DNA from: an uncultured Planctomycetia bacterium
GTDB taxonomy: Bacteria; Omnitrophota; Gorgyraeia; Tantalellales; Tantalellaceae
NCBI GenBank assembly: GCA_964527555.1
Contig: CAZGOG010000006.1
Location: 276 to 64,275, forward strand
Length of the DNA stretch: 64,000 bases
Direction of reading: 5' to 3'
Part shown: piece after piece, positions 39,385 to 56,694 of the stretch
Layout of the letters: each line of letters starts with the position of its first letter
How positions within the stretch are numbered: the first letter of the stretch is position 1
Program-made: the position numbers and the translations under genes
The notes under the pieces: model-generated
What the model was told of the DNA's origin: nothing
Databases searched by the model: none
What the model saw: the letters and a program-made list of their open reading frames with translations, nothing else

Positions 39385-40377
39385 CTAGCAAATGCGCGGC
39401 AGCTGATCCGTCTCAAGCATAGGCAGTATCCGGTTTGCCCCGGCTGTTGTCTTTAAATAAACCTCTTTTTTGTGCCGGCTCGTCACTTCCCCTATGATCC
39501 TTGCTTCCGGGCCAAGCGCTTTTTTGACCTTCCCTGCATCCTTTTCACCGGCAAAACAGATAAATTTTCCTTCGTTTGCCACATATAAGGGGTCAAAACC
39601 CAGAACATCACACAGGCTTTTTACGTTTTTTTTGATCGGGATATCTTTTTCGTTTATCTCTATACCGAAATCGGATGCCCCTGCTATCTCATTAAGCGCT
39701 GTTGCCAGGCCTCCTCTAGTCGGATCACGCATAACGCTGATATTTTTTGAGGCTTTAAGGGCTTTTTCTGCCGCAAAGTTCAGGTTAGCGCAATCACTTT
39801 TTATTCCTGACTCAAACCCGAGATTCTCTCTTGCGTTAAGAATAGCCATCCCATGCTCGGCTATCCCCCCATTAATCAGTATAACATCCCCGGCTTTTGC
39901 TTTTGCGCCGATTCTGAATCCTTTACGCTCTATAACGCCTATACCGCTGGTATTGATAAAAATCTTGTCGCAGGCTCCTCTTTCAACTACTTTCAGGTCA
40001 CCTGTGACAACTTTAACGCCTGCCTTCCGGGAAGATTCTCTTACAGAAGAAGCGATCCTGTCTAAAACGGAGAACTCAAGTCCTTCTTCGATAATAAGCG
40101 CAAGTGAAATAAATAGCGGTTTTGCCCCTTTCATGGATATATCGTTCACCGTACCGCATATGGAAAGTTTGCCGATATCACCTCCCGGGAAAAAGAGCGG
40201 TTTTACCACGAAGGAATCAGTGCTGAACGCCAGATGCCCCGTACCCGTATAAAGCTCCGCGGCATCCGTCATCTCATTAAGAGCTTTATTCGAAAATTTA
40301 ATACGTAAAAGCTCAATAATTTCGTGCATAAGCCTTCCGCCGTTACCGTGTGCGAGTGTTATTTTTTTCTCTTTCAT
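39385..40377 (-). CDS. hypE: Hydrogenase maturation protein HypE
   Basis: The N-terminus reads ITLAHGNGG, the AIR-synthase-like fold is present, and the C-terminus ends PRIC (the Cys that is cyanated). Size is 330 aa. Confidence 0.9.
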   Translation of the reverse strand: MKEKKITLAHGNGGRLMHEIIELLRIKFSNKALNEMTDAAELYTGTGHLAFSTDSFVVKPLFFPGGDIGKLSICGTVNDISMKGAKPLFISLALIIEEGLEFSVLDRIASSVRESSRKAGVKVVTGDLKVVERGACDKIFINTSGIGVIERKGFRIGAKAKAGDVILINGGIAEHGMAILNARENLGFESGIKSDCANLNFAAEKALKASKNISVMRDPTRGGLATALNEIAGASDFGIEINEKDIPIKKNVKSLCDVLGFDPLYVANEGKFICFAGEKDAGKVKKALGPEARIIGEVTSRHKKEVYLKTTAGANRILPMLETDQLPRIC

Positions 40378-40396
40378 TCGCCTCCGTAGCGTTTAA

Positions 40397-41413
40397 TTAA
40401 CCGCCGTATTTATAATATGCAGCGCAAGTGCCTTCTGAAGAGACCATACACGGGCCGACAGGGGTTTGCGGAGTACATTTCTTCCCGAAAAGAACGCAGT
40501 TCTTCGGTGATTTTATACCCTGGAGAACCGCCCCGCAAACGCATCCCTTCGGCACGGCCGGCTTAGGCACTTTTACCTTGAACTCTTTCTCGGCGTCAAA
40601 CCTCTCGTATTCTTTTTTCAGTTTTAAGCCGCTTTTTGCAATCTCCCCGATCCCGCGCCAGTGGCTGCTTCTGGCCTCAAACGCTTTTTCCAGCACTTTT
40701 TTAGCTTTTACATTTCCGCCTTTAGCGACTGCTCTTTTATATTCGATCTCCACTTTGCTTGAATGAGCCCGTACCTGATCAACAAGGCGTTTTATGCCGT
40801 TTATTATATCGCTGTCATCAAACCCAGTTATGACGCAGGGTTTGCCGTAACGCTTTGCCACGCATTCATAGGGAACGCTTCCGGTTATAACGCTGACGTG
40901 CCCCGGGCAAATAAAGCCGTCCACCTTGATTCGCTTAGAAGAAGCAAGCGCCTCAAGCGCCGGAAAAAGAACTTTGAAATTCGAAAGGATAAAAAAGTTC
41001 CGCACCTTGCGCTTTTCTGCTTCCAGAACTGTCGAAGCAACCGTAGGAGAGGTCGTTTCAAACCCCACTCCCATGAAAACTACTTTTTTCAAGGGATTAT
41101 CTTCGGCTATTTTTAAGGCATCAGTGCACGAGTATACTATACGCACGTCGGCTCCGTCTCTTTTAGCCCCTTCCAGACTTCCGCCGGTGCCTGGGACCCT
41201 CATCATATCACCAAATGTGGCCATAATGACATCTTTCGTACCGGCTATTTTTACGGCCCTGTCTATATCGCTTTGCGGGGTAACGCATACCGGGCAACCC
41301 GGGCCGGAGATTAGTTCTATCTCTCGAGGCAAGAGTTTTTTTATCCCGGATCTGGCGATTGCCATCGTATGCGTCCCGCACACTTCCATAAGTCTTATTT
41401 TTTTCTTTTTCAT
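40397..41413 (-). CDS. hypD: Hydrogenase maturation protein HypD
   Basis: Has the EVCGTHT-type N-terminal motif (MEVCGTHTMAI), GPGCPVCV and the FxxPGH motif, at 338 aa. Confidence 0.9.
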   Translation of the reverse strand: MKKKKIRLMEVCGTHTMAIARSGIKKLLPREIELISGPGCPVCVTPQSDIDRAVKIAGTKDVIMATFGDMMRVPGTGGSLEGAKRDGADVRIVYSCTDALKIAEDNPLKKVVFMGVGFETTSPTVASTVLEAEKRKVRNFFILSNFKVLFPALEALASSKRIKVDGFICPGHVSVITGSVPYECVAKRYGKPCVITGFDDSDIINGIKRLVDQVRAHSSKVEIEYKRAVAKGGNVKAKKVLEKAFEARSSHWRGIGEIAKSGLKLKKEYERFDAEKEFKVKVPKPAVPKGCVCGAVLQGIKSPKNCVLFGKKCTPQTPVGPCMVSSEGTCAAYYKYGG

Positions 41414-41414
41414 A

Positions 41415-41654
41415 CTATTTCCCGCCGGTATCTTCCCTTATTGTGCGTTTCAGTTCGTCAAGCGCCTTGAGCGTCTCTTGAGCTTCTTTTTTAGCGACTT
41501 TTCCTATAGCAAAACCGGCATGTACGAGGACATAGTCACCCTTTTTAACGCCGCTAAGAATCCCAAGCGATATTTCTTTTTTCGCGCCGCCAAAGTCTAC
41601 CACGGCGACATCTTTCTTTATATTTTTTACCTCAGCAGGAACCGCTAAACACAT
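41415..41654 (-). CDS. hypC: Hydrogenase maturation protein HypC
   Basis: Starts MCLAVP with Cys2, at 79 aa. Its stop overlaps the hypD start. Confidence 0.85.
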   Translation of the reverse strand: MCLAVPAEVKNIKKDVAVVDFGGAKKEISLGILSGVKKGDYVLVHAGFAIGKVAKKEAQETLKALDELKRTIREDTGGK

Positions 41655-41661
41655 AATATCC

Positions 41662-42743: not shown

Positions 42744-42986
42744 TTACTCCACATCAAACGAAAGAACCTGGACGATCGTACCCGGAAACATCGTTATCTC
42801 AAGCGAAGCATCCTCCAGCATGGTGCCCTTCGCTAAAACTTTAAAGGTTTCCCGGAATGAATCTTCCCTGACGCAGGTAAGGTTCCCCACCTTGAGTTTA
42901 ACTTTCGTCACCGTGCTTGCCCCTTCTTCTCTGGCATGTTTTTCTATTCCTTCGATTACCGGCTTTATTAAATGCGTTTCATGCAT
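42744..42986 (-). CDS. HypA-like nickel-binding domain protein lacking the zinc-finger module
   Basis: Starts MHETHL, carrying the MHE Ni-binding N-terminus. At 80 aa it has no CxxC pairs. It sits between the protease and the HypF-like gene. Confidence 0.5.
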   Translation of the reverse strand: MHETHLIKPVIEGIEKHAREEGASTVTKVKLKVGNLTCVREDSFRETFKVLAKGTMLEDASLEITMFPGTIVQVLSFDVE

Positions 42987-43464
42987 TATACGCCTCCTCT
43001 ATGAGTTGAGTCATCTCATCAAGCGTCTTTTTCACGTTAGGCGAGACTTCTTCGCCAAAATCGACATTCTCCGGCTGAACGGCCAGCATATAAATATCGG
43101 CGGCCAGCTCCTTCTCAAGGTATTCAATAAACATGACCGGTGAAAGGTCATGCGTGGTAAACCCGGATCTGACTATGTCTTTCTTCTTCAAAATATCGTA
43201 TTCGCCGCTAGCCATGCCCAGCTGTGCCGCATCAGCAATAAGAACCGTTCGTGGAGCCCTCTTGACGATCTTACCCAGATAGTTTTCTGGAGCCGTCCCG
43301 GCATCGATGCACACAGCGCCGATCCTATCCTTTATCCTTTCGATTAAAAGAGGTCCGAAAGCATCGTCGCCCCTTAGGACGTTACCCACCCCTACTATCA
43401 AGCACTCCTTTTTAAACACAGCCTGAAGAGTACGGTATATTTTTTGTTTTTTGTTTTTCATCAC
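42979..43464 (-). CDS. [NiFe]-hydrogenase maturation endopeptidase (HycI/HybD family)
   Basis: Has the LIVGVGNVLRGDDAFG motif at 161 aa. The large subunit it would process carries a C-terminal extension after DPCYCCTER. Confidence 0.85.
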   Translation of the reverse strand: MMKNKKQKIYRTLQAVFKKECLIVGVGNVLRGDDAFGPLLIERIKDRIGAVCIDAGTAPENYLGKIVKRAPRTVLIADAAQLGMASGEYDILKKKDIVRSGFTTHDLSPVMFIEYLEKELAADIYMLAVQPENVDFGEEVSPNVKKTLDEMTQLIEEAYNA

Positions 43465-43500: not shown

Positions 43501-44169
43501 TTAGCCTTCTTCGTTCTCTTTCGTAGTAAGAGTGGTTTCTCTCCTACAGCGCGCGCAAAGGATCTTCACCCTGTCGGAACGGCCGTAATCCTTCATCGCG
43601 GAGATAATATTATTATCTACAATACCAAGACTTTTAAGGCGGGCTAGGTATAAGGTGGGACTTGAATAGGTCAACTCCCCTATTTTCTCAGAGATCCATT
43701 TCAGGTGATCCTTGCAGGCGATCACATCGCCGCACACCTCACAGAGCTGAAGCTCCTTCTCAATCGTCTCCTGAGCTTCACCCCTGTCAAAGAAGGCAAG
43801 ATCCCAGTCATTGGAGAGTTTAATACCTTCATTATCAGCGATACAGGCGGCTTCACACTGGCCGCAGAATATGCAGGTATCTGTATAATGGATGAGCGTC
43901 CTTTTCGGCTTTTCAGAATCAGTCTCATCCTTGTAATCAAGTGCCTCCACGGGACAGACCTGCACGCATGCAAGGCATCCCACGCACTTTTCGTCATTAT
44001 ATTTGGGTTGTCCCCGAAAGTTCTTATGCGCGACGTGCGCTACTTTAGGGAATTTAGACGTATACGGCCCTTTTATAAGCGCTTTTATCGCTTCTATAAG
44101 CTCCCTTATTTTGGGTTTCGGTATCCTCATCCTATATCTCACCCTCTTTATCTTCAGCATACCTGTCAA
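43501..44169 (-). CDS. NuoI/MbhN-like 2x[4Fe-4S] subunit of the membrane-bound hydrogenase (the start may be the internal MRIP at about 44130)
   Basis: Has two CxxCxxCxxxCP motifs (CVGCLACVQVCP, CIFCGQCEAAC) plus an extra C-terminal Cys-containing extension. Confidence 0.7.
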   Translation of the reverse strand: MTGMLKIKRVRYRMRIPKPKIRELIEAIKALIKGPYTSKFPKVAHVAHKNFRGQPKYNDEKCVGCLACVQVCPVEALDYKDETDSEKPKRTLIHYTDTCIFCGQCEAACIADNEGIKLSNDWDLAFFDRGEAQETIEKELQLCEVCGDVIACKDHLKWISEKIGELTYSSPTLYLARLKSLGIVDNNIISAMKDYGRSDRVKILCARCRRETTLTTKENEEG

Positions 44170-44467
44170 TAACGCTTTTTTCCCAGAGCTTGACTCCCGC
44201 TCTATGCGCGCCTCTTGCCACTGCGTGCGCTGCTACCGGTGCCGTCAAAAGTATGAACACTATGCAAAGAAGAGATTTAAGACCGGCTGCCGTGAACCCC
44301 ACTACCAGGAACGTCCCGAAGAGGATACTGCAAGTACCCAGCGTAACGCTTTTTGTCGCAGCCTGGAGACGGTTATATACGTCCGGCAGCCTCACCAGCC
44401 CCAGACAGCCGAAAAGGTCAAACGCAAGACCAACAGCAATAAAGACTAACCCGATAATATTACTCAT
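44132..44467 (-). CDS. mrpG: Mrp antiporter subunit G (MnhG/MbhC-like)
   Basis: A small 3-TM protein whose N-terminus IIGLVFIAVGLAFDLFGCLGLVRLPDVYNRL is typical of MnhG. Confidence 0.8.
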   Translation of the reverse strand: MSNIIGLVFIAVGLAFDLFGCLGLVRLPDVYNRLQAATKSVTLGTCSILFGTFLVVGFTAAGLKSLLCIVFILLTAPVAAHAVARGAHRAGVKLWEKSVIDRYAEDKEGEI

Positions 44468-44837
44468 CGAAACCTTTTCCTTCTAAATATTTTGAAAGTG
44501 CAAGCGTCCCTATAAAACTTTGAAGCGCCCAGGCTATACCAATGTCTATATACCATGACCTGCCGGTCGAAATCGTCAAAACGGAACAAAAACCGATTAT
44601 CATGATACCGAAAATATCTATCGCAACGATCCTATCGGCGCCTGTAGGCCCCCTGAATATGCGGTAAAGGCAAAGCGCACAGGCAAGAACCAGTATATAC
44701 ATGGCCCTGCCTAAAAACCCGACAAAGGGAAGATCAGGATAAAAAAGAAACGGAAACGGCCTTATTAGGATAAGGGTGATTATGGTAATGAGTGAAAGAG
44801 CCCCTAAGATCCATCTTAATATCTTCATGTTTTTCAA
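44460..44837 (-). CDS. mrpF: Mrp antiporter subunit F (MnhF/MbhB-like)
   Basis: 125 aa with 3 TM helices and the GPTGADRIVAIDI motif of MrpF. Confidence 0.8.
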   Translation of the reverse strand: MKNMKILRWILGALSLITIITLILIRPFPFLFYPDLPFVGFLGRAMYILVLACALCLYRIFRGPTGADRIVAIDIFGIMIIGFCSVLTISTGRSWYIDIGIAWALQSFIGTLALSKYLEGKGFDE

Positions 44838-44844: not shown

Positions 44845-45342
44845 TTATTCAAAGATTTTAGCTAAAATATCCTCAAACCTCTCCACAATCACTTTTGTTG
44901 CGGAAGAGACGTCTTTCTCCGTTACATTGATCCAGTGTATATAGAGAACGCCGCCCTCCCTGTCGATATCAACGCTCATGGTCCCCGGTGTAAGGGTTAT
45001 GGAATTAGCCAGAAAGGTGAGCGCCGTATCCGACTTAAGTTTAGTCTTAACCTTGACGATTCCCGGGTTTATCGGAAGCTTTGGATGCGTTACGCGATAC
45101 GCAACATCGATATTCGCTTTCAGACACTCCCATAAAAACCTCGGCACATAATAAGCTATAAAATACCAGTAACGGTGCGGGTGTTTAAGTATCTGGGGTC
45201 TGGTTATAAAAAGATCGCCCGTCGCAGCGGCGACAAAAGCTACTATAAAAACCCCGACTAAAAGATGCTGCCAGTCCGGTGGCCACGTCAGCATGCACCA
45301 TATAACAAAACCACAAACAAATAAGACTAATTTCTGTTTCAT
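44845..45342 (-). CDS. mrpE: Mrp antiporter subunit E (MnhE/MbhA-like)
   Basis: An N-terminal 2-TM region is followed by a soluble domain at 165 aa. It sits in the MrpD-E-F-G order. Confidence 0.75.
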   Translation of the reverse strand: MKQKLVLFVCGFVIWCMLTWPPDWQHLLVGVFIVAFVAAATGDLFITRPQILKHPHRYWYFIAYYVPRFLWECLKANIDVAYRVTHPKLPINPGIVKVKTKLKSDTALTFLANSITLTPGTMSVDIDREGGVLYIHWINVTEKDVSSATKVIVERFEDILAKIFE

Positions 45343-46848
45343 TTATCCGATCCCTTTGAAAACAATAGCGGCATATTTAGTTCCCTCTAAAAGGGCGTCT
45401 GCCGCCTGTGAAAGAAAATCCGTCTTTACCGCGCCCACCAGGAGAAGCCCTCCCAGAACACATATAAGCGCTAAGGCGCTCATGGCGAGTTTCATGAAGA
45501 CGGGCACCTCTTTCACCTGGTCCCATTTCTTTTTTAAGCGGTCGAAAAAGGCATATTTCATGACTTTCATGAAAGATGCAAGAGTCAATACGCTCGCTAT
45601 GACCGCCCATAAAGCGTAGCCGTAGCGCCCTGCCTGGACTGCCGCGATGATTATAATAAGCTTGCTCCAGAAGCCGTTAAAAGGCGGCACCCCCGCAATA
45701 GACATCGAAGCGATAAGACTCGTCGCTCCGGTAACGGGCATTTTCTCCGCCAGGCCGCCCATTTCCTTGAGATCACGCGTTCCCGTTGAATATTCGACAG
45801 CGCCGGAATTCAAGAAAAGCAGCGACTTAAACACGGAATGGTTAAAAAGATGAAATAACCCTCCCAGAATACCCAGCGGCGTAGCCAGGCCTATACCGAG
45901 CACTACATAACCTATCTGACTTATCGAATGATACGCAAGAAGCCTTTTAAAATCCCACTGCCCTATAGCCAGGAAAACCCCTATTACCATAGATAGCGTC
46001 CCGAGAACTAAAAGTATGGAGGAGATCTCGGCGCTCATACCGATGACATTGTACAAGATCCTGCAAAGCGCATATATACCGAGAGATTTTATGAGCACTC
46101 CCGAAAGCATCGCCGAAATAGGCGCCGGTGCGGAAGGATGGGCATCCGGGAGCCATGCATGGAACGGGACAAGCGCCGCTTTAAGCCCGAACCCCATGAC
46201 GAAGAGTACCGTTACCATCACCGTTATGTCGCCGCCGCCTTTTGCCGCAAGTACCTGCGCCATATCCGCCATATTAAGAGTGGAAGTATAACTGTACAGG
46301 AAAACAATACCCAGAAGAACGAAAAGCGAAGCCACGGTACTCATGATAGCGTACTTAAAAGCGGCTTCGAGCTCATGCTTCTCCGTCCCGAAAGCGACCA
46401 GCGCGTAACTTGCTACAGACGCTATCTCAAGAAAAACAAACAGGTTGAACATGTCGCCCGTTATAATGACCCCGTTCATCCCGGCAAGCATCAGGAGAAA
46501 CAATGAGTAAAACTTCCACTTGGAGGTATACTTTTCCATATAATTTATCGAAAAAACAGCTATTATAAAAGCGACCAGGTTCACCGTGACCAGCATGAAC
46601 GATGTCAGCCCGTCCAGCACCATGGCGATACCAATGGGAGGTTTCCAGGCACCGACGCTATATACCAAAGTACCGTTCTGGTTTACGACCCAGACCGATA
46701 CAAGCGAAAGCGCCATGAGAGCTAAAGTAAACACCCCTCCCGTCAGGTCGGGCGCCCACTTCACCTTTTTGCCTATAAGCGGCAGGAGGAACGCCCCGGC
46801 CAGAGGCAGTGCGACAAAAAGCGGTATTATATTAGATGCCGGCATCAT
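45343..46848 (-). CDS. mrpD: Mrp antiporter subunit D (NuoN/MbhH-like proton-pumping subunit)
   Basis: A 501-aa polytopic protein of the NuoL/M/N family (WLPDAHPSAPAPISAMLSG). Confidence 0.85.
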   Translation of the reverse strand: MMPASNIIPLFVALPLAGAFLLPLIGKKVKWAPDLTGGVFTLALMALSLVSVWVVNQNGTLVYSVGAWKPPIGIAMVLDGLTSFMLVTVNLVAFIIAVFSINYMEKYTSKWKFYSLFLLMLAGMNGVIITGDMFNLFVFLEIASVASYALVAFGTEKHELEAAFKYAIMSTVASLFVLLGIVFLYSYTSTLNMADMAQVLAAKGGGDITVMVTVLFVMGFGLKAALVPFHAWLPDAHPSAPAPISAMLSGVLIKSLGIYALCRILYNVIGMSAEISSILLVLGTLSMVIGVFLAIGQWDFKRLLAYHSISQIGYVVLGIGLATPLGILGGLFHLFNHSVFKSLLFLNSGAVEYSTGTRDLKEMGGLAEKMPVTGATSLIASMSIAGVPPFNGFWSKLIIIIAAVQAGRYGYALWAVIASVLTLASFMKVMKYAFFDRLKKKWDQVKEVPVFMKLAMSALALICVLGGLLLVGAVKTDFLSQAADALLEGTKYAAIVFKGIG

Positions 46849-47183
46849 CCCTTTAACTCCCTGATCTTTGTGATATCAAAAGTACCGTATTTTTCATAGA
46901 TCCTCATCGCGATACCCACAAGTAACGCGGTAGTCGCAAGTCCTATGACAATAGAGGTAAGCACGAGCGCCTGCGGCAGCGGGTCCACCATGTTCTTTAT
47001 TTCTTCGCCGCTTGAGAAGATAGGCGCGCGTCCATTCACTCTATAGCCCGCGAGTATGAAAAAGAGGTTAACCGCGTATTCCAGTATGATCACACCGATT
47101 ATCATCTTTATGACGTTGCGTTTTCTCACTATACAGTAAATACCGATAACGAAAAGTACCAGACACAGAAAATAAATGCTCAT
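46845..47183 (-). CDS. mrpC: Mrp antiporter subunit C (NuoK/MbhG-like)
   Basis: 112 aa with 3 TM helices and the conserved Glu-containing motif ILEYAVNLFFILAG. Confidence 0.85.
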   Translation of the reverse strand: MSIYFLCLVLFVIGIYCIVRKRNVIKMIIGVIILEYAVNLFFILAGYRVNGRAPIFSSGEEIKNMVDPLPQALVLTSIVIGLATTALLVGIAMRIYEKYGTFDITKIRELKG

Positions 47184-47632
47184 TTTTTCTTCCCTACATC
47201 AAGTTTTAATAGTATCAGTGCCACAAATATCGCGAAAATCCCGGCTCCCACTTTGAAACTTATGGCAATATTGCAAAGCGGGATAATACCCGCGCTGAAA
47301 AGCCTGAAAGGCTCACCTTTCGGTATAAAATTCAAAAAGAAATATCCTCCCGTAAAACCTAAAAGCGCTATAGAGAGAAATAGTATCGCGCCGGTACTTT
47401 CCCAGATGGAGGCTCGTGCCTCGGAAAGCTTCTTAAAGGCGACTTCTTTACCATATGCCAGTATTAGGTGTATAAAAGACAGCGCAATGATAACACCGCC
47501 GGCAAAACCGCCTCCCGGTGAAAGATGCCCGTGAGTGACGATATAAACCCCGTAAAGAAAGATGATCCCTACCGTTAGACGCGTGATCGTCTTGACTATA
47601 AGCGACATGCCTTTTTCATGTTCCCTACTCAT
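47180..47632 (-). CDS. mrpB: Mrp antiporter subunit B-like (MnhB domain, MbhF-like)
   Basis: The motif THGHLSPGGGFAGG is the MnhB signature. Confidence 0.8.
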   Translation of the reverse strand: MSREHEKGMSLIVKTITRLTVGIIFLYGVYIVTHGHLSPGGGFAGGVIIALSFIHLILAYGKEVAFKKLSEARASIWESTGAILFLSIALLGFTGGYFFLNFIPKGEPFRLFSAGIIPLCNIAISFKVGAGIFAIFVALILLKLDVGKKK

Positions 47633-48173
47633 CGCTTGCTTTTACCTCTTCTCCTGCTTTTTTTCTGCCAATGCGTCTTACAATCGCCAGAACCCCTATA
47701 ACAGCGGTAAACAGAATCGTCGCCTCACCCAGCGTATCGTAAGCCCTGAAGTCCAATATGACGGAAGAGACAAGGTTGACAGCTCCCGTTTTTGGAAGAC
47801 CTTCCGCCAGATATGTCTTAGCTACCCGCATCGCCGGATATCCGAACTCGGGCAGATCCTTAAGGCATTTCATGGCTACCGCCATAAACAAAACTATGAA
47901 ACATGCTGTAATAAGAGTGTTTAAAAACCACCTGCCGGTCGTTGAAAACGGAAGATCCTTCTTAAGCGTCGCTCTTATAAGGATTATGAGCGCCAGTATC
48001 TCTACCACAAGCTGCGTAATAGCCACGTCCGGCGCTTTGAGTATCAAGAACACTATGGAAAGCGCCAAACCGACCGCACCTACCGCTATAACAGCCGAAA
48101 GCAGGTCTTTTAGCTCGATCGCGACGATCGCGCCTATAATCATCAAAACAAGTAAAACGTAAAGCTCTACCAT
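47625..48173 (-). CDS. MrpA C-terminal-region-like membrane subunit (MbhD/E-like)
   Basis: 182 aa and hydrophobic. It sits between the NuoL-like MrpA core and MrpB, as in Mbh-type operons. Confidence 0.6.
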   Translation of the reverse strand: MVELYVLLVLMIIGAIVAIELKDLLSAVIAVGAVGLALSIVFLILKAPDVAITQLVVEILALIILIRATLKKDLPFSTTGRWFLNTLITACFIVLFMAVAMKCLKDLPEFGYPAMRVAKTYLAEGLPKTGAVNLVSSVILDFRAYDTLGEATILFTAVIGVLAIVRRIGRKKAGEEVKASDE

Positions 48174-49821: not shown

Positions 49822-50430
49822 TTAGCTGCTCTCCTTTGATACCCTTGCGATGTTCGTGCAATGACGGGCTATGTTACCCGTGAAATCCAACATATCAAAA
49901 TACATGTTCGACGCTCGCGCCTGGCATATACCTTTAGTAAGGCGTTCAAGATGCGCACTTCTTGCCTTTTCAACCAGTTTCTTGATCACGTCTCCATTGG
50001 CCAGGATCTCGTCTAAAAGTCCCGGATTCCCGGTATTTAGAAATTTCACTAAGAGGTCCACTGACTTTTTCATCGTATTAAACACTTCTTTATATTGGGA
50101 TGAACCTTCTTCGCTGAACTGGAGCCTGTCTGAAATTTTGATCTCAATACGCTCAACCAGAGAACGAAACTCATCCCCCATACGTTCCAGGTTCTGGGCG
50201 ATCTGCCCCCAAACGACAAGTTTTTTCTTGGCGGCCTCATCGAGTTTTTTGGAAAGCGCCACGATATCGGCAATGATCTCCTCTTCGATAGCGTCCAGTT
50301 CTCGTTCTTTGCCGAGAACACCGTCAAGTATATGTATATCGTTTTTATCAAGACCGCTGTATGTGATATCTACCATCTCTTTAACGATCGCGGCCATCTC
50401 CCGGGCTGATTTTTTTATTTTGTCGTTCAT
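49822..50430 (-). CDS. PhoU-like/DUF47-type helical protein embedded in the hydrogenase operon
   Basis: It is all-helical, and MLDFTGNIARHCTNIARV plus LERMGDEFRSLVERIE resemble PhoU repeat motifs (D..GD...nIaE). It is translationally coupled on both sides. Confidence 0.45.
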   Translation of the reverse strand: MNDKIKKSAREMAAIVKEMVDITYSGLDKNDIHILDGVLGKERELDAIEEEIIADIVALSKKLDEAAKKKLVVWGQIAQNLERMGDEFRSLVERIEIKISDRLQFSEEGSSQYKEVFNTMKKSVDLLVKFLNTGNPGLLDEILANGDVIKKLVEKARSAHLERLTKGICQARASNMYFDMLDFTGNIARHCTNIARVSKESS

Positions 50431-51605
50431 CTTTTCCCCCGTCTGATCCTTTCGGTCTTCTCCTGTGAAAGCCTGATAAGCTCTTCACCGTTATAAAGCT
50501 TCTTTCCTTTAATATCCCGCACGGCCATCCTTTCCGTGCAACAATAACACGGGTCTATAGCTGCCAGGATAATCGTAGTATCGGCAATAGTCTCGCCTAT
50601 CACAGTAGACTTATAAGTCGGCAGATTCATAAAGGTCGGGGCCCTTACCTTGTGCCTCTCAGGGCTGTTAGTACCGTCGCTCCTCACATAATGAAACGTC
50701 TCGCCCCTGGGGGCCTCGATGTGGCCTATACCTTCTCCCGGGGGGATGCTTTTGATATTGGCGTCTATTTCCCCCGATGGAAGGTTTTTAAGGCAGTACT
50801 TCATTATCTTATGGGACTCGAACATCTCAAGCACTCTTACAACAACCTTATCAAAAACATCCCCGGTTTCGGTGACTATCATATCCCAGTCTAATCTGTC
50901 ATAAGCTCCATAGGGAGAATCTTTTCGAACGTCCCTGGCGACTCCGGAAGCACGTGAAGTGGGACCCAAAGCAGAATAGTCTATGGCTTCTTCCTTTGTA
51001 AGAATACCTACGCCTTTCGTCCGCGCGTGCAGTACCGGGTCATCCATAACGGCTTTCCTTAGCATCTCAAGCGTAGGGACGATAGAATCTATTTTCTTTA
51101 TAGACGCCTCAATATCCTCAGGGGCAAAATCCCTCCTTACCCCGCCCGGTTTAAACATCGCATAGTTATTTCTGTTGCCGGAAAGTATCTCCATGACGTC
51201 CAGGATCTCTTCCCGGAGTTTCCAGGCCCACATGTAAACGGTATTATAACCCAAGAAATGCCCCGCAAGACCAAGCCATAAAAGATGAGAGTGCAGCCTT
51301 TCCCCTTCAGCGATCACGGTCCTTATGAACTTGGCTCTTTCGGGCACTTCCATCGGGATGATATCCTCAACCGCCCTCGTATAAGCATAGGGATGGCTTG
51401 TCGAGCATATGCCGCAGATCCTTTCAATAACAAAAGTGGACTGATCAAACGTCTTCATCTCGGACAGTTTCTCTATACCCCTATGGTTATACCCGACCTG
51501 GACGTCGACATCTACTACTTTCTCACCTTCTACCGTAAGGGTGAAAAACTCGGGTTCCTCCTGCAGCGGGTGATACGGTCCTATTGGTACAATTGTTTTC
51601 GCCAT
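50427..51605 (-). CDS. Group 4 [NiFe]-hydrogenase large subunit (EchE/MbhL/HycE-like). Start placed at MAKTIVPIGPY.
   Basis: ERICGICSTSH is the N-terminal RxCGxCxxxH Ni-Fe ligand motif and DPCYCCTER the C-terminal DPCxxCxxR motif. A roughly 33-aa C-terminal extension is left for the endopeptidase. Confidence 0.9.
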   Translation of the reverse strand: MAKTIVPIGPYHPLQEEPEFFTLTVEGEKVVDVDVQVGYNHRGIEKLSEMKTFDQSTFVIERICGICSTSHPYAYTRAVEDIIPMEVPERAKFIRTVIAEGERLHSHLLWLGLAGHFLGYNTVYMWAWKLREEILDVMEILSGNRNNYAMFKPGGVRRDFAPEDIEASIKKIDSIVPTLEMLRKAVMDDPVLHARTKGVGILTKEEAIDYSALGPTSRASGVARDVRKDSPYGAYDRLDWDMIVTETGDVFDKVVVRVLEMFESHKIMKYCLKNLPSGEIDANIKSIPPGEGIGHIEAPRGETFHYVRSDGTNSPERHKVRAPTFMNLPTYKSTVIGETIADTTIILAAIDPCYCCTERMAVRDIKGKKLYNGEELIRLSQEKTERIRRGKR

Positions 51606-51609: not shown

Positions 51610-52104
51610 TTATTTTGGTTTTTTGTTTTTTTCGATGCCACGATCCCTGACAGCTTGCGGATCCCATTCTTCATAATCTGCCCTGAGCGGGTAAACCCCT
51701 TCGGGCCAGTCCTCCGGAAGGAGAAGCCTCCTGAGATCGGGGTGCCCCTTAAAATTAACGCCTAAAAGTTCATGTATCTCTCTTTCTATCCAGTCCGCGG
51801 CCTTGAAATGCGGCGCTAAAGAATCTATCTCAAGCTTGTCTTTTGCCAGCTTCACCCGTAGTGAAATCAATAGATTTATGTCCTCGACAGTGAAATGATA
51901 CAGGATCTCTATATAGTCCCGTGCGTCCCTTCCCGTAGCTATGTTAAAACGCGCTTTCTGGTCCTTGAAAATATAAGTGGCCACCTTGACCAAGGATTTC
52001 GGCTTGATCTCGATGTACACTCTTTTCCGGGTCTTATCGAAAATATCGATAATATCTGCCTTGAACTTCTTCGTGAGATCTTTTAATATTTCTTCTCGAT
52101 TCAT
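51610..52104 (-). CDS. NuoC/EchD-like hydrogenase subunit
   Basis: A 164-aa NuoC (30 kDa subunit)-like sequence (ERE..E.LG..F.GHPD.RRLL). Confidence 0.8.
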   Translation of the reverse strand: MNREEILKDLTKKFKADIIDIFDKTRKRVYIEIKPKSLVKVATYIFKDQKARFNIATGRDARDYIEILYHFTVEDINLLISLRVKLAKDKLEIDSLAPHFKAADWIEREIHELLGVNFKGHPDLRRLLLPEDWPEGVYPLRADYEEWDPQAVRDRGIEKNKKPK

Positions 52105-52542
52105 CTATTTAGTTTCCCGGCTTTTTGCCTTGACCTTTTCTATTAGTTTCACCACACCCGCTATTATAGCTTCCGGTTTCGGCGGGCAACCCGGAATGTA
52201 AGCATCAACGGGGATTATTTTATCAAGCGGCACGGGACAGTTGTAGCTGTGTATGAACATGCCGCGCGACAGTGAACACTCACCTATGGCGACTACGAGA
52301 CACGGTTTCGGGGCCTGCTCATAAAGCCTCTTAAGTCTTTTCGCCGATTTCCTGTTACAGGACCCCGTAATAAGAAGAACGTCGGCGTGTTTAATGCTCG
52401 GGGCCAGAAGCATCCCGAACCTCTCTATGTCAAACCTGGGCGTAAGACAATCGAGCACTTCGATATCGCAGTTATTACAGCTTCCCGTGGAAAGGTGGAA
52501 CACCCACGGAGATTTTAGCAACGCTTTTAGTTTCATGCTCAT
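52105..52542 (-). CDS. Group 4 [NiFe]-hydrogenase small subunit (NuoB/EchC/MbhJ-like)
   Basis: Has four Cys for the proximal [4Fe-4S] (CNNCDIEVLDC ... GCPPKPE) at 145 aa. Confidence 0.9.
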   Translation of the reverse strand: MSMKLKALLKSPWVFHLSTGSCNNCDIEVLDCLTPRFDIERFGMLLAPSIKHADVLLITGSCNRKSAKRLKRLYEQAPKPCLVVAIGECSLSRGMFIHSYNCPVPLDKIIPVDAYIPGCPPKPEAIIAGVVKLIEKVKAKSRETK

Positions 52543-52544
52543 GT

Positions 52545-53486
52545 TTATCTTCCTATTAGTGCCAATACCACCGCGACTATCGCAATCACCGTCATCGGTC
52601 CCCAGAAAAACTTAACGGCCTGATCTATCCTTACCCTGGGATTCGTGTTTCTTATGACCGTTATAAGCGCCACAAGTCCTATATATTTGAGGATGCCGTA
52701 TAGAAAGTGCACTCCATCAAGTCTTAACCCGCCCATGTAAAGTATCATCAAAAAGAAAGGCAGCGTGAAAAGAAGCATGTTCTTCATGAGGCGGAAAACT
52801 GCCAAAGGCGCGCCGGAATATTCTATTAAAACTCCTCCTCCAAGCTCGGTCTCGGCTTCGGGTATATCAAACGGCACAAAAGCAAGTTTTGCCTGCACGC
52901 TCATGATCGCAACGACGAGCGCCAAAGTGCCGGATAAACTTCCCGCCACCACACCGTTTTCTGCCTGAGAAGTAAGTATGTCCCCCAGTCTGATCGCATA
53001 ATCGGATTTAATAACGGGAACCAGTACCGCAAGTACAAATGGCAGCTCATAAGCAAGTATCATCTTCATCTCACGGGAAGCGCCTATACTCGCCAGCGGG
53101 TTTGCCGAGGCAAAACCACCTATTATGATACTTATCGAGGGGATGGTAAGCAGGTATATCGCAACGATTATATCCCCCATAAAACCTTTACCCACCCATA
53201 TATCATTGACCCACAAGAGGGCTGAGACCACCATTACGCTCGATATGCCCAGAACAGGCGCCAGTAAAAACGTCTGTTTTGAGGCCCCCGCGGGGACTAA
53301 AGTCTCTTTACCCAACAGCTTGATTATATCGATAAGCGGCTGAAGAAGAGGCGGCCCCACGCGATACTGCACGCGTGCAGTGACTTTCCTGTCAATCCAG
53401 CTTGCCAGAAGCCCTATTACGGCTGTCAGTAAAAATCCAAAAAATAGCAGATAAAACACGTTTCTCATGCTTTTTCCCTGTCCCAA
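52545..53486 (-). CDS. NuoH/EchB/MbhM-like membrane subunit
   Basis: A 313-aa polytopic protein of the NuoH family (RVQYRVGPPLLQPL, ETELGGGVLIEYSG). Confidence 0.85.
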   Translation of the reverse strand: MGQGKSMRNVFYLLFFGFLLTAVIGLLASWIDRKVTARVQYRVGPPLLQPLIDIIKLLGKETLVPAGASKQTFLLAPVLGISSVMVVSALLWVNDIWVGKGFMGDIIVAIYLLTIPSISIIIGGFASANPLASIGASREMKMILAYELPFVLAVLVPVIKSDYAIRLGDILTSQAENGVVAGSLSGTLALVVAIMSVQAKLAFVPFDIPEAETELGGGVLIEYSGAPLAVFRLMKNMLLFTLPFFLMILYMGGLRLDGVHFLYGILKYIGLVALITVIRNTNPRVRIDQAVKFFWGPMTVIAIVAVVLALIGR

Positions 53487-54028
53487 TGCGTGGAATGAAC
53501 TATTATGTTGTCACCCACGAAAAAGGTGTTTTCATCGAGCGCGATATCCCCGCTTTTTAAGCTTAACGCCCCGTAAGGGCACGTCTTTATACATAACGGT
53601 TCATCTTTTTTGTCTCTTCTATCCAGGCAGAAATCACAGTTATGGACCAGATACGGTACTAGTTCAGGATAAATGGTCCCGTAAGGGCATGCATGAGAAC
53701 ATGACCCGCAGCTTATGCATCTCATGTTATGCCGCATAAGAAAATTATCCTTGTCTTCCTGCTGCTCGAGCGCCTCTACCGGACAGGAAGCGACGCAATG
53801 CGGATCTTCGCATCTCCTGCATACAAGAGCGTAAGTGGCAAGTTCCGCTACCGAAAGGATCCCGTTATTTCCGGTCTGGCGATGATAAAGATAACTGCAT
53901 TTAATTACGCATTCTTTACATTCGCCTGACGCGCAGACATCGAGGTCGATGAAGAGCCTCTTGTCTTTGCCTTTTTTGGGCTCGGTGTTTACGTTACCCT
54001 GATGCACCTGTTCCGCGCTAGTTGCCAT
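53465..54028 (-). CDS. HycB-like polyferredoxin (multiple [4Fe-4S])
   Basis: Has four Cys clusters (CKECVIKC, CRRCEDPHCVASCP, CISCGSCSHACP, CDFCL...CIKTCP) at 187 aa. Confidence 0.75.
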   Translation of the reverse strand: MATSAEQVHQGNVNTEPKKGKDKRLFIDLDVCASGECKECVIKCSYLYHRQTGNNGILSVAELATYALVCRRCEDPHCVASCPVEALEQQEDKDNFLMRHNMRCISCGSCSHACPYGTIYPELVPYLVHNCDFCLDRRDKKDEPLCIKTCPYGALSLKSGDIALDENTFFVGDNIIVHSTHWDREKA

Positions 54029-54043
54029 GCTTATAAACCTCTT

Positions 54044-54880
54044 TTAATCCCAGATCCCGTGAAAGTCCTTTATCTTATCATATGTAAAGACCGGGCCGTC
54101 TTTACACGCATAATAAGTACCTAGCCTGCAGTGCCCGCATTTCCCTATACCGCAGGACATGTTCTTCTCCATGGAAAGATAGATGTTCCCTTCTTTAAAT
54201 CCCAGTTCCAAGAGCTTCATGGTCGCAAACTTCATCATTATAGGAGGACCGCAGACAACCGCGATAGCCGTAGGATAGTGCATGTCGATATCGTCCAGGA
54301 TCGTCGTGACAACTCCGACGTTACCTTTCCATTTATCGTCACCGGCATCGACCGTAAGTTTAAGGTTCAAGTCGTCCCTTTCGGCCCATTCCTCTGTCTG
54401 ATCTTTATATACCAGTTCTTTCGGGGTTTTACACCCGCCTCTAAAATAGAGTTTTTTAAATTTGCCGCTTCTATCAAAAAACTCGTACATAAGGCTTCTT
54501 AAAGGCGCGAAACCGCACCCCCCGCCTACCACTAATATCTCTTTGCCTTCGAAGTCATCCACCGGATACCCAGTTCCAAAAGGACCCCTTACCCCGATTA
54601 TATCGCCTTTTTCGAGTTCGTGGATCTTATCAGTGACTTTTCCCACCTTCATGACGCTCACTTCCATTATATCCCTGACCGAAGGTTTCGATGACGGGGT
54701 AAACGGCGCTTCCCCCACTCCGGGAATGGTTATCTCCACGAACTGACCCGTCTTAAAGGTTATCTCCTCTTCCGGCTTGAACCTTATGGTCTTTATAGTC
54801 GGGGTCTCCGTTATAACGTCAAGGACTTCCGCCTTTATGGGCCTGTATGGATTCTCGCATGGAGACTTACTTTTTGCCAT
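54044..54880 (-). CDS. AsrB/HydG-family FAD- and NAD(P)H-binding subunit with a C-terminal [2Fe-2S]
   Basis: Has the PyrK-like flavin-reductase fold (RFKPEE..F..GQF, VVGGGCGFAPLRS) and a C-terminal CGIGKCGHCRLG cluster motif, at 278 aa. Confidence 0.8.
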   Translation of the reverse strand: MAKSKSPCENPYRPIKAEVLDVITETPTIKTIRFKPEEEITFKTGQFVEITIPGVGEAPFTPSSKPSVRDIMEVSVMKVGKVTDKIHELEKGDIIGVRGPFGTGYPVDDFEGKEILVVGGGCGFAPLRSLMYEFFDRSGKFKKLYFRGGCKTPKELVYKDQTEEWAERDDLNLKLTVDAGDDKWKGNVGVVTTILDDIDMHYPTAIAVVCGPPIMMKFATMKLLELGFKEGNIYLSMEKNMSCGIGKCGHCRLGTYYACKDGPVFTYDKIKDFHGIWD

Positions 54881-55910
54881 CAGTATCTACCAATCTTCTT
54901 AAAACCTTTCTGATATCTATCTTCGCAGGGCATGCCGAGATGCAGCGTCCGCATCCCGTGCAAGCGTATACTTCAGAGACTTTCGGAAAAAAATCGAATT
55001 TCTTCACAAACCTGTTACGAAGGCGCTGGTAGAGTTTACCCCTGGGATTATGTCCCCCGGCGACCTTAGCGTATTCTTTCAGCATACATGAATCCCAGAT
55101 GCGCAGACGCGCCATCTTATCTTCGCTTTTCTGGTCATAGAGAAGAAAGCAGTGACATGTCGGGCATATTATGGTGCACGCTCCGCATTCGACACAGGTC
55201 TCCGCTTCGCTCGTCCATATATCGGATTCAAAGTTCCTTTCGATGATATTTTCAAATACGTCCTGACGTGGAACGTTGTTTTCCTTGATATTATTTTCGA
55301 CCTGTTTTGTGACGCTTTCCCTTACCTTGTCCCTTGCTTTAATAAGCCCGCTTGCTGCCTCCTCGAAAAAGGAAGAGTTTTTATCTATAATCTTCTTCCC
55401 CTTATCCGATCCGGCCTCAACAAGATACCCGCCTTCCGTCTCGGAAAGATTAATATCAAAATTCTCTTTCGGGTAAGGATCCACCCCCACCGCAAGGCAG
55501 AAACATGTATCGATCGCCAGGGTACAATCAGACGAGATGATGAGGTTCTCTTCCCTCAGCTTGATATAAATAGGGTCCTTGTAATCATGGTCCAGAAAGA
55601 CATGGTCCTGGATTTTAAAGCCTTTAAGGTCACATGCTTTAACGCCTACTATTGCAAAAGGTTTGTCGGCAGCGTGAGGAGCTCCTTTTTTGAAATCTTC
55701 GGCGACGACCTCTCTTGCGCGTGAGAAAAAAGCCTTAAGCGGCTCGAAGGGACGCACCTCACCTATAACGATTTTCTCGGCCTCTTTCGTATACTCTTTA
55801 TAGAAACGTTTCTCGCCCTTTTTGACGGGTACGAAAACACGGAAGTCTTCCTTTAAAGAATCCAGGAAAAGCGGAAATTTTTCACTTGATATGTGTTTTA
55901 TATCACTCAT
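54867..55910 (-). CDS. AsrA/HydB-family iron-sulfur subunit
   Basis: Has CVECGACTIICPTCHCF and CTGCGRCISACP ferredoxin-type motifs. Its 347 aa match the AsrA/sulfhydrogenase-beta size class. Confidence 0.75.
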   Translation of the reverse strand: MSDIKHISSEKFPLFLDSLKEDFRVFVPVKKGEKRFYKEYTKEAEKIVIGEVRPFEPLKAFFSRAREVVAEDFKKGAPHAADKPFAIVGVKACDLKGFKIQDHVFLDHDYKDPIYIKLREENLIISSDCTLAIDTCFCLAVGVDPYPKENFDINLSETEGGYLVEAGSDKGKKIIDKNSSFFEEAASGLIKARDKVRESVTKQVENNIKENNVPRQDVFENIIERNFESDIWTSEAETCVECGACTIICPTCHCFLLYDQKSEDKMARLRIWDSCMLKEYAKVAGGHNPRGKLYQRLRNRFVKKFDFFPKVSEVYACTGCGRCISACPAKIDIRKVLRRLVDTDGKK

Positions 55911-55916
55911 GATGAC

Positions 55917-56546
55917 TTATTTCTTATTCACCAGGAAATACGACAGCGTTTCCAGCTCCCTTGAAAGATCAACGTCTTTTACTTTTACCTCTTCCGGCAC
56001 GTTTAAAGCGACCGGCGCGAAGTTCAGGATACATTTAACGCCTGACGAAACCAGTTTATCCGCTACGTCCTGCGCGTTCTCGGCATCAACGGTTATAACC
56101 CCTATGGATATCTTGTTAGCCGCTACCCGCTTGGCAAGTTCACTTAAGGGCTCAACCGTTATCCCTCCGAGGCGCTTGCCGATCTTACTGGCGGATGCAT
56201 CGAACGCTGCCACTATCTTTAAACCGTGTTTTTCAAATCCGGAATATGAAAGCAGCGCTGAACCCAGATGCCCCACTCCCAGCACGGCAACGTTCCAGGT
56301 CTTGTCTTTACCGAGTATTTTCTCTAAAGCTTTTTTCAGTTCGCCCGTATTATAACCCGAACCGCTTACCCCGAACTGCCCGAAATAACCGAGATCTTTT
56401 CTTACCTGCGCATCACTTAGGTTCACTTTCTCGCCCAGCTCCGCTGAAGAGATCGTTTTTATGTCCAGATCAACCAGCTCGGTGATTTTCCTCAAATATA
56501 TGAAAAGCCGTGTTATAGTGCCCTCTGGCACTTTTTTTCCGTTCAT
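55917..56546 (-). CDS. rex: Redox-sensing transcriptional repressor Rex
   Basis: An N-terminal wHTH (ITRLFIYLRKI) is followed by a Rossmann fold with VAVLGVGHLGSALL, at 209 aa. A Rex operator lies in its own 5' UTR. Confidence 0.9.
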   Translation of the reverse strand: MNGKKVPEGTITRLFIYLRKITELVDLDIKTISSAELGEKVNLSDAQVRKDLGYFGQFGVSGSGYNTGELKKALEKILGKDKTWNVAVLGVGHLGSALLSYSGFEKHGLKIVAAFDASASKIGKRLGGITVEPLSELAKRVAANKISIGVITVDAENAQDVADKLVSSGVKCILNFAPVALNVPEEVKVKDVDLSRELETLSYFLVNKK

Positions 56547-56567
56547 GGATTTTGGCTGTAATAGATT

Positions 56568-56585
56568 TTGTGATAATATTCACAA
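56568..56585 (-). promoter_or_regulatory. Rex operator (TTGTGA-taatat-TCACAA)
   Basis: Read directly. It is a perfect match to the canonical Rex box TTGTGAAnnnnnnTTCACAA core, lying 22 nt upstream of the rex ATG and downstream of the predicted -10. Confidence 0.7.
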
Positions 56586-56590
56586 ACTTC

Positions 56591-56634
56591 GTTCTTAAAT
56601 TCACAAATATAATACTTTTATACCGGGATGTCAA
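56591..56634 (-). promoter_or_regulatory. Candidate sigma70 promoter of the rex-hydrogenase operon (TTGACA-N17-TATATT), with a Rex half-site (TTGTGAA) overlapping the -10/TSS
   Basis: Read directly on the minus strand. The -35 is at plus 56629-56634 and the -10 at 56606-56611. TTGTGAATTTAAGAAC lies at 56591-56606. Confidence 0.45.
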
Positions 56635-56694
56635 GAGGAAAATAAAAAGAATTTTTAGAAGATTGACTGCGGGAAAGAGCTATAGATGCTTCTT

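Follow-up and report, generated by a model that had tools for sequence, protein, structure and literature searches.

A 16-subunit hydrogenase-Na+/H+ antiporter supercomplex was named Hun by Glass et al. (2021; bioRxiv 10.1101/536078 / Environ Microbiol), who described HunA and HunB as AsrA/AsrB-like proteins, HunC as an Fe-S protein, HunD-G as the hydrogenase core, HunH-O as Mrp-like subunits and HunP as a NuoI-like subunit, and who listed Atribacteria, Firmicutes, Omnitrophica, Elusimicrobia, Bacteroidetes and Kosmotoga as hosts. In that work the large subunit HunG was typed by HydDB as "group 4g", yet it lies far from other 4g enzymes and carries a CGIC...CYCC motif in place of CGIC...CxxC. 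An "enigmatic" group 4 hydrogenase of Saganbacteria with Mrp-like subunits, cooF, asrA and asrB was described as closest to the hydrogenases of Zixibacteria and Omnitrophica and as having "unknown electron donors" (Matheus Carnevali et al., 2019; PMC6349859). In genome papers on Omnitrophota the enzyme appears only as "group 4g, Mrp-linked", with ferredoxin taken to be its donor, and papers on Kosmotoga and Mesotoga treat Mbx and the [FeFe] hydrogenase, not hun. We found no follow-up literature on Hun after Glass et al. (2021), none combining HydBG with a group 4 hydrogenase and Mrp, and nothing relevant on Atribacter laminatus. Here we analyzed 64,000 nucleotides of contig CAZGOG010000006.1 (assembly GCA_964527555.1, positions 276 to 64,275; hereafter the window) from an uncultured bacterium placed by GTDB in Omnitrophota. 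We propose that its region 39385-56640, on the minus strand, is one Rex-repressed operon encoding a Hun-type [NiFe] hydrogenase, a complete Mrp-like arm and its own maturation genes, in which the input module looks able to handle reduced pyridine nucleotides (NAD(P)H).

The Operon and Its Identity

The region holds a single tight, co-directional array of 24 genes running from 56546 down to 39385, with intergenic gaps of no more than 36 bp and 11 junctions at which neighboring genes overlap (Table 1). Our gene models agree with the public gene calls for contig Ga0309773_1000204 of the Joint Genome Institute (JGI) metagenome 3300028840, to which the window belongs. Pfam calls placed all 24 genes in the families, and in the order, that an initial annotation made from the sequence had listed, and its assignment of modules was also borne out: the input pair resembles the beta and gamma subunits of sulfhydrogenase I, the core resembles MbhL and HycE, and the Mrp set is complete. 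Its total of 28 genes was a miscount, as its own list likewise has 24 items.

Relatives of the locus were gathered by scanning one genome per GTDB species, the best 80 loci were examined further, and the gene content of related loci was determined by tblastn with the 24 window proteins. The hunA-P order in the window is that of Glass et al. (2021) with one PhoU-domain gene extra, and the related loci L004 and L005 show the hunA-P order without this gene. HunG is 57% identical to the Kosmotoga HunG (WP_287809425 / K. olearia ACR79287) and at most 46% identical to other group 4 clusters, its subgroup placement resting on these identity gaps together with Glass et al. (2021). The segment DPCYCCTER is present in 120 of 120 close HunG homologs; across 83 loci, CGIC was found in all 83 and CYCC in 73. 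With the CGIC/CYCC motifs, hunABC upstream without asrC, the hunA-P order and a Kosmotoga-type HunG all present, the operon is almost certainly a Hun operon. The fusion of modules was described earlier by Glass et al. (2021), also for Omnitrophica, and before that by Matheus Carnevali et al. (2019): Hun is an already described yet never purified membrane hydrogenase, and the architecture in the window is not new.

HunG carries an L1 motif, RICGICSTSH, an L2 motif, DPCYCCTER, and a 30-residue C-terminal extension of the type that HycI-like proteases cleave off. Among solved structures it matched MbhL (6cfw_L, 1e-88) and HycE (7z0s_E, 5e-84), and its close named homologs, which share 83-93% identity, are annotated as Candidatus Omnitrophota. 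The most likely start is at 51605 (MAKTIV..., 392 aa), as in the public gene call, rather than the start of the 415-aa open reading frame (ORF). In the translation of HunE, the four Cys expected to bind the proximal [4Fe-4S] cluster occur in GSCNNCD, GEC and GCPP. Because both Ni-binding Cys pairs, the 30-residue tail, a HycI protease and HypC, HypD and HypE are all present, HunG is, judging from its sequence, a genuine [NiFe] hydrogenase subunit. A non-hydrogenase of the Mbx/Mbs type was considered and ruled out by the Cys pairs, the C-terminal tail, HycI and the Hyp genes; Mbs (6u8y_L) also scored much lower as a structural match.

Table 1. Features of the hun operon and its promoter region, with window coordinates, in order of transcription.
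Feature	Position	Strand	Basis
Sigma-70-like promoter	56606..56634	-	TTGACA, 17-nt spacer, TATATT; 11/12 positions, best match of the region
Predicted Rex operator, palindromic	56568..56585	.	TTGTGATAATATTCACAA; one mismatch to TTGTGAANNNNTTCACAA
rex, redox-sensing repressor, 209 aa	55917..56546	-	Pfam PF06971 (Put_DNA-bind_N) + PF02629 (CoA_binding)
hunA, AsrA / sulfhydrogenase-beta-like Fe-S protein, 347 aa	54867..55910	-	Fer4_22
hunB, AsrB / sulfhydrogenase-gamma-like FAD, NAD(P)-binding, [2Fe-2S] flavoprotein, 278 aa	54044..54880	-	FAD_binding_6, NAD_binding_1, DHODB_Fe-S_bind
hunC, HycB/FdnH/NrfC-type polyferredoxin, 187 aa	53465..54028	-	Fer4_11
hunD, NuoH/MbhM-like membrane subunit	52545..53486	-	PF00146 (NADHdh), 6.5e-63
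hunE, NuoB-type small subunit	52105..52542	-	PF01058 (Oxidored_q6)
hunF, NuoC-like subunit	51610..52104	-	PF00329 (Complex1_30kDa)
hunG, [NiFe] large subunit (NuoD-like), 392 aa	50427..51605	-	PF00346 (Complex1_49kDa) + PF00374 (NiFeSe_Hases)
PhoU-domain protein, 202 aa, between hunG and hunH	49822..50430	-	PF01895
hunH, NuoL/MrpA-N-like antiporter subunit, 546 aa	48181..49821	-	PF00361 (Proton_antipo_M) + PF00662
hunI, MbhD + MbhE fusion, similar to the MrpA C-terminal part	47625..48173	-	PF13244 + PF20501
hunJ, MrpB/MnhB-like	47180..47632	-	PF04039
hunK, MrpC/NuoK-like	46845..47183	-	PF00420 (Oxidored_q2)
hunL, MrpD-like antiporter subunit, 501 aa	45343..46848	-	PF00361 (Proton_antipo_M), 6e-69
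hunM, MrpE-like	44845..45342	-	PF01899 (MNHE)
hunN, MrpF-like	44460..44837	-	PF04066
hunO, MrpG-like	44132..44467	-	PF03334
hunP, HycF/NuoI-like 2x[4Fe-4S] subunit with Cys-rich C-terminal extension	43501..44169	-	Fer4 families
HycI-type maturation endopeptidase	42979..43464	-	PF01750
hypA, N-terminal domain only, 80 aa, begins MHE	42744..42986	-	PF01155 positions 1-70 of 112
hypF, C-terminal Kae1-like carbamoyltransferase half only, 356 aa	41662..42732	-	PF17788 (HypF_C) + PF22521
hypC	41415..41654	-	PF01455
hypD	40397..41413	-	PF01924, 2.5e-148
hypE	39385..40377	-	AIRS + AIRS_C

The Electron-Input Module

The best solved relative of HunA is the beta subunit of Pyrococcus furiosus sulfhydrogenase I (9nez_B, 1.4e-47), and the alignment of HunB with the gamma subunit of the same enzyme, which binds NADPH (9nez_C, 5.6e-59), spans the full length of the protein. 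The HunB motifs GEAPF(T/S), VRGP.G, GGG.G.AP.R and C..G.C..C...C are at least 95% conserved among 68 orthologs. Read from these motifs, HunB keeps a complete and conserved site for flavin adenine dinucleotide (FAD), NAD(P) and a [2Fe-2S] cluster, a point that we found in no paper, and its NAD(P)H module looks functional. The NAD(P)H input suggested by the initial annotation is therefore a reasonable idea, supported by motifs kept across these orthologs, and makes NAD(P)H a candidate donor.

Further along the presumed electron path, HunC matched FdnH, NrfC and the HDCR HycB3/HycB4 subunits in the PDB, and the best solved relative of HunP is Escherichia coli HycF (7z0s_F, 4.9e-18). With HunP similar to HycF and HunC of the HycB/FdnH type, the peripheral arm therefore appears to be wired like that of formate hydrogenlyase, with a diaphorase in the place of formate dehydrogenase. 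The C-terminal extension of HunP reaches about 80 residues past its two ferredoxin motifs and contains, in the translation, CEVC...C and CARC, from which an additional metal site might be built.

The AsrA/AsrB-like genes might instead have belonged to an unrelated sulfite or polysulfide reductase that happens to lie beside the hydrogenase genes. What speaks for this is that the best NCBIfam matches of HunA and HunB are sulfhydrogenase and anaerobic sulfite reductase subunits. The scores, however, fall short of the family cut-offs: HunA lies below those for ShyB, HydB and AsrA; for the beta and gamma subunits of sulfhydrogenase, the ShyB profile gave 202 bits against a cut-off of 690 and the HydG profile 200 against 650 (NCBIfam equivalogs); and the Asr profiles gave 135.9 bits against 323 (TIGR02910) and 243.9 against 288.6 (TIGR02911). 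We found neither an AsrC/siroheme gene nor a group 3b alpha or delta gene in the window, and the genes are physically tied to the hydrogenase, with 14 nt of overlap between hunA and hunB and a gap of 15 nt between hunB and hunC. This arrangement is also conserved among relatives: of the 65 loci that have enough upstream DNA, 64 carry hunA and hunB immediately before the hydrogenase genes and in the same orientation. An Asr-type sulfite reductase was rejected on the missing AsrC, the sub-cut-off scores and the conserved linkage; because the synteny is conserved, an unrelated sulfite reductase is effectively refuted, and we consider this reading extremely improbable.

The same linkage of AsrAB-like, Mbh-like and Mrp-like genes, which the initial annotation had suggested looking for in other genomes, indicates that the HunAB input module is an obligatory part of the system. 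According to that annotation, its idea would fail if the large subunit belonged to a well-characterized subgroup whose operons routinely include AsrAB-like genes. The large subunit does fall in a named subgroup in which such genes are routine, but this subgroup has not been characterized biochemically. Only in Candidatus Celaenobacter antarcticus (Cloacimonadota; L017, 1-8200) was HunAB missing. There a GltD/NfnB-like NAD(P)H flavoprotein (4Fe-4S + Pyr_redox_2) lies upstream, separated from hunC by one gene encoding a CBS-domain protein, and we counted this locus in favor of an NAD(P)H module. The same locus also has a second complex-I-like cluster, whose NuoD-like subunit gave no NiFeSe_Hases match.

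Hun relatives were found in at least 586 species genomes, and about 20 named lineages are represented among the best 80 loci, including Thermotogota, Ignavibacteria, Marinimicrobia, Cloacimonadota, Calditrichota, Aminicenantes, Clostridia, Omnitrophota, Kiritimatiellia, Bacteroidota, Desantisbacteria, Nitrospirota, Planctomycetota, Margulisbacteria, Elusimicrobia/Endomicrobia, Fibrobacterota, Eisenbacteria and FCPU426. Some of these carry a molybdopterin oxidoreductase (formate-dehydrogenase-like) between hunB and hunC (L074 1980-3725, L077 1975-3369), a gene seen at this position before (Glass et al., 2021, 10.1101/536078; Matheus Carnevali et al., 2019, PMC6349859). In that some relatives add this enzyme as a third input, the arm through which electrons enter is modular.

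Rex and the Promoter Region

The first gene of the array encodes a protein that passes the NCBIfam Rex equivalog NF003993 (254.7 bits, cut-off 217). Between the -10 hexamer of the predicted promoter and the rex ATG (56546) lies the predicted Rex operator, the sole site in the 64 kb with no more than one mismatch to the Rex consensus (TTGTGAA-N4-TTCACAA); three other matches were found, each with three mismatches, which is the level expected by chance. Promoter-like matches inside the array numbered 36, when 24.6 +/- 5.5 were expected, a modest excess.

Similar boxes recur in related loci. Over 1.33 Mb of these loci we counted 33 Rex boxes with up to two mismatches, 24 of which fell within the promoter zones, 24 kb in all, that immediately precede hunA or rex-hunA and in which 0.6 would be expected. 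A rex gene lies within the locus in 18 of 67 loci, and a rex gene, a box, or both in 31 of the 67. The position of rex varies: it precedes the operon in the same orientation in the window, in one metagenome-assembled genome (MAG) labelled Clostridia, in Desantisbacteria and in several Planctomycetota loci, is divergent in Bacteroidota loci, and lies downstream in two loci from Omnitrophota. A box with one mismatch is nevertheless found 70-90 nt upstream of hunA in L004 and L005, where rex follows the operon. The claim that the operon is Rex-gated thus finds in silico support, from an operator placed between promoter and first gene and from the recurrence of this arrangement in other lineages. 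Rex control of hun appears to be conserved across related loci. We found no paper linking Rex to the Hun enzyme, and the word "Rex" is absent from Glass et al. (2021).

A Model for Hun Function

The sequences show directly the gene content, the motifs, and the conservation of synteny and of Rex boxes. From homology, we suggest that the donor would be NAD(P)H; the reaction direction, the ion coupling and its stoichiometry are likewise predictions. Electrons would pass from NAD(P)H to the FAD and [2Fe-2S] cluster of HunB, to the [4Fe-4S] clusters of HunA, and then through the HunC polyferredoxin and HunP to the proximal cluster of HunE and the [NiFe] site of HunG. Such a layout would correspond to that of FdhF-HycB-HycF-HycG-HycE with the formate dehydrogenase swapped for the diaphorase pair of a group 3b sulfhydrogenase. 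Rex, bound to the operator between the -10 hexamer and the first gene, would free the promoter when the NADH/NAD+ ratio rises, so that the enzyme would be made when NADH needs to be re-oxidized and would put electrons from NAD(P)H onto protons as H2. The reaction is presumed to be reversible; we infer that NADH oxidation rather than H2 uptake is the main direction, because Rex induces at high NADH.

The standard potentials (E0') are -320 mV for NAD+/NADH and -414 mV for H+/H2, so that, under standard conditions, H2 formation from NADH costs about +18 kJ/mol. When H2 falls to about 1 Pa, the potential of the H+/H2 couple rises to roughly -266 mV and the reaction becomes slightly favorable, and at the few-pascal H2 of sediments and syntrophic communities it is roughly neutral to slightly favorable. 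Because the energetics depend in this way on H2 pressure, the Mrp-like arm may either feed or conserve energy: ion-motive force would be fed in at high H2, and a little energy might be conserved at very low H2. A precedent exists in the non-bifurcating NADH-dependent [FeFe] hydrogenases of syntrophs, which are described in one report (PMC7311640) as working at a few to tens of pascals. We lean, with confidence slightly better than even, toward this model of a Rex-derepressed, NAD(P)H-linked, ion-coupled and reversible hydrogenase whose main job is to move NAD(P)H electrons to H2.

Several points weigh against this model. We know of no characterized group 4 hydrogenase that uses pyridine nucleotides, all of them working with ferredoxin, formate or CO, and a full Mrp module is easier to understand with a low-potential donor, because NADH oxidation to H2 leaves little or no energy for pumping. 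The beta-2 loop of HunB, which determines specificity, is not conserved among the orthologs, for which reason we make no call between NADH and NADPH; Rex, moreover, responds to NADH, but NADPH is preferred by the solved protein closest to HunB. Since the Rex regulons of other anaerobes also include ferredoxin-dependent and bifurcating hydrogenases, Rex control alone cannot name the substrate, and no Rex box was detected in the loci of Thermotogota, Ignavibacteria and Marinimicrobia, nor in several others. As for the operon itself, co-transcription is suggested by gene spacing alone. No convincing intrinsic terminator was found after hypE, where the 134-nt spacer folds no more stably than shuffled sequence (z = -0.65). 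Finally, ferredoxin is the donor that was proposed for Hun by Glass et al. (2021; 10.1101/536078).

In such a ferredoxin-driven, Mbh-like enzyme, put forward by Glass et al. and Williams et al., electrons would run from ferredoxin through HunA, HunC and HunP to H2 while the Mrp arm exports Na+ or H+, and the flavin/NAD(P) domain of HunB would be vestigial or regulatory. The hydrogenase core is indeed most like the ferredoxin-dependent MbhL, HunC and HunP are surface polyferredoxins at which ferredoxin could dock, a full antiporter arm fits a donor near -450 to -500 mV, and Rex controls ferredoxin-dependent hydrogenases in other anaerobes too. A vestigial module, on the other hand, would hardly persist in 64 of 65 loci across about 20 named lineages while conservation of its FAD and NAD(P) motifs stays at 95% or more. 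Mbh takes ferredoxin without any HunAB-like module, and an AsrAB pair fed by ferredoxin clashes with the membership of AsrB in a family of NAD-binding flavoproteins (Pfam NAD_binding_1). Weighing these points, we regard a purely ferredoxin-driven enzyme as unlikely, though still a serious competitor.

Alternatively, both donors may be used, with ferredoxin entering at HunC/HunP and pyridine nucleotide at HunAB, which would make Hun an ion-translocating ferredoxin:NAD(P)+ oxidoreductase that vents H2, or an enzyme that draws H2 from both donors without a bifurcating flavin; in effect, Mbh and sulfhydrogenase would be merged in one machine. Such an arrangement would account at once for the large ion-pumping arm and for Rex control, it is in keeping with the combination of group 4 and group 3b parts, and the molybdopterin oxidoreductase input of some relatives shows that the peripheral arm is modular. 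It is nevertheless inferential only; the operon has no ferredoxin gene, and neither a second flavin nor a bifurcating subunit of the NfnB/HydB type was found in the window. We consider it rather improbable, though more likely than the unrelated reductase discussed above.

Returning to the NAD(P)H-linked model, the disposal of NADH electrons as H2 by fermenting and syntrophic anaerobes is a central problem of anaerobic energetics, for which the known solutions are bifurcating or low-H2 NADH-dependent [FeFe] hydrogenases and the pairing of Rnf with Ech. We put forward, tentatively and with rather less confidence than the model itself, that Hun enzymes may be the first pyridine-nucleotide-linked group 4 [NiFe] hydrogenases: a complex I in which protons replace quinone, NAD(P)H/H2 is coupled to a Na+/H+ gradient and Rex acts as the switch. 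If this is true, many uncultured anaerobes would possess a ferredoxin-independent, non-bifurcating route from NADH to H2, or an energy-conserving one from H2 to NAD(P)H. The distribution of Hun is very wide, and published reconstructions treat it as a ferredoxin-dependent Mbh; use of NAD(P)H by HunB would mean that the donor has been misassigned in reconstructions of Omnitrophota, Atribacteria, Planctomycetota, Bacteroidales and others, and would define a new class of bioenergetic enzyme. The conserved Rex boxes provide a concrete regulatory prediction, and the presence of hun in cultured Kosmotoga makes the donor question testable.

Antiporter Arm, Insertions and Maturation Genes

HunH aligns with NuoL nearly to its C-terminus (NF005141 positions 77-609 of 615). 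The PhoU-domain protein encoded just upstream of it lies far below the cut-off of the PhoU equivalog (33.7 bits, cut-off 130). A gene of this kind was found between hunG and hunH in 7 further loci, six from Omnitrophota and one from a MAG labelled Planctomycetales, with products 30-37% identical to that of the window; a Nitrospirota locus (L036) has one at a different position, and L087 has one too. We regard the PhoU-domain gene as a lineage-specific insertion. Endomicrobia, Desantisbacteria and some Omnitrophota have, in the interval from hunG to hunH, a gene for a third antiporter-like (Proton_antipo_M) subunit (L042 11169-12560; L034 9833-11065; L055 6269-7633; L087 1712-2938). The two kinds of additional gene thus use the same insertion point.

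The maturation genes at the end of the operon include two shortened forms. HypA has no zinc-finger domain, and the same 80-aa form occurs in L004, L005 and L087; HypF covers positions 390-740 of the 741-position TIGR00143 profile. Neither HypB nor the N-terminal part of HypF was found among the other ORFs examined in the 64 kb. The translated HypE ends in ...PRIC.

In many other Omnitrophota the hun operon ends differently, with HycI, the 80-aa HypA, a HypC::HydE fusion, rex and HydG, which replace hypF-C-D-E (L004 18305-21182; L005 18270-21185; L086 10001-13480; L087 10001-13467). The fusion protein, of about 433 aa, keeps the N-terminal Met-Cys of HypC and the CxxxCxxC motif of radical S-adenosylmethionine (SAM) enzymes, its HydE part reaches 246-270 bits where the cut-off is 254.6, and the number of sequence clusters that carry it is at least 120. 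Neither HydF nor an [FeFe] hydrogenase was found near these loci, and our literature search returned no paper on the fusion. HypC::HydE together with HydG may represent an unusual route to the [NiFe] site, in which radical-SAM ligand synthesis feeds a [NiFe] enzyme.

Genomic Neighborhood

Downstream, 128 nt beyond hypE, lies a gene for a 733-aa DUF5060 protein (37055-39256). Upstream, at 56695-60390 (-), are genes for an amino-acid permease fused to an EIIA-2 domain of the phosphotransferase system (PTS) and for a PAS histidine kinase. The window also contains a nitrogen-assimilation cluster at 19800-36759 (-), encoding glutamate dehydrogenase, a PPDK_N-domain protein, the small and large subunits of glutamate synthase, an ammonium transporter, a GAF-ANTAR regulator and type III glutamine synthetase. 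An oxidative-stress cluster typical of anaerobes, at 12608-18964 (-), encodes a peroxiredoxin, a DsbD-like protein, an Ogg glycosylase, a thioredoxin-reductase-like flavoprotein, two rubrerythrins and a flavodiiron protein. Searches of the window for Rfam families and for tRNA genes gave no matches.

Comparison With Known Systems

The system closest to the window locus is Hun itself as described by Glass et al. (2021), with which it shares the gene order hunA-P, an AsrA/AsrB-like pair and a polyferredoxin before a NuoH/B/C/D core, the Mrp-like genes hunH-O followed by hunP as the last subunit, the CGIC/CYCC motifs and an Omnitrophica host. The window adds rex in front, the PhoU-domain gene inside and HycI with HypA, F, C, D and E behind. 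The published model also differs from ours in taking ferredoxin as the donor, and the NAD(P)-binding domain of HunB and Rex go unmentioned in it.

P. furiosus Mbh (group 4d; 6CFW) provides the closest solved large subunit and has homologues of MbhD/E, MnhB and MrpC-G as well as a NuoH-like subunit, and its logic, ion translocation coupled to proton reduction, would be the same in the window. Mbh consists of 14 subunits (mbhA-N) with a single antiporter-like subunit, and ferredoxin feeds it directly, with no extra module. The window Hun, in contrast, has two Proton_antipo_M subunits (three in some relatives) plus HunABC, which sets it apart from group 4d. The second-closest large subunit is that of the E. 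coli formate hydrogenlyase and the Mrp-linked formate and CO enzymes (groups 4a and 4b; 7Z0S), which also share a HycF-like HunP, a HycB-type HunC and the principle of a soluble dehydrogenase connected to the hydrogenase via a polyferredoxin. The 24 genes of the window, however, include neither a formate dehydrogenase nor a CO dehydrogenase, and a flavoprotein/Fe-S pair stands in their place.

This pair shares its FAD, NAD(P), [2Fe-2S] and [4Fe-4S] motifs with the beta and gamma subunits of P. furiosus sulfhydrogenase I (group 3b; 9NEZ) and with AsrA/AsrB, although HunA and HunB fall below every NCBIfam equivalog cut-off and have as partner a membrane group 4 hydrogenase rather than a soluble alpha/delta dimer or the siroheme protein AsrC. 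Lastly, complex I offers the same overall plan of a pyridine-nucleotide input set on a NuoB/C/D/H/I core with antiporter-like subunits, HunH being similar to NuoL. The input module of Hun is unrelated to NuoEFG, and the predicted acceptor is H+ at a [NiFe] site, not quinone.

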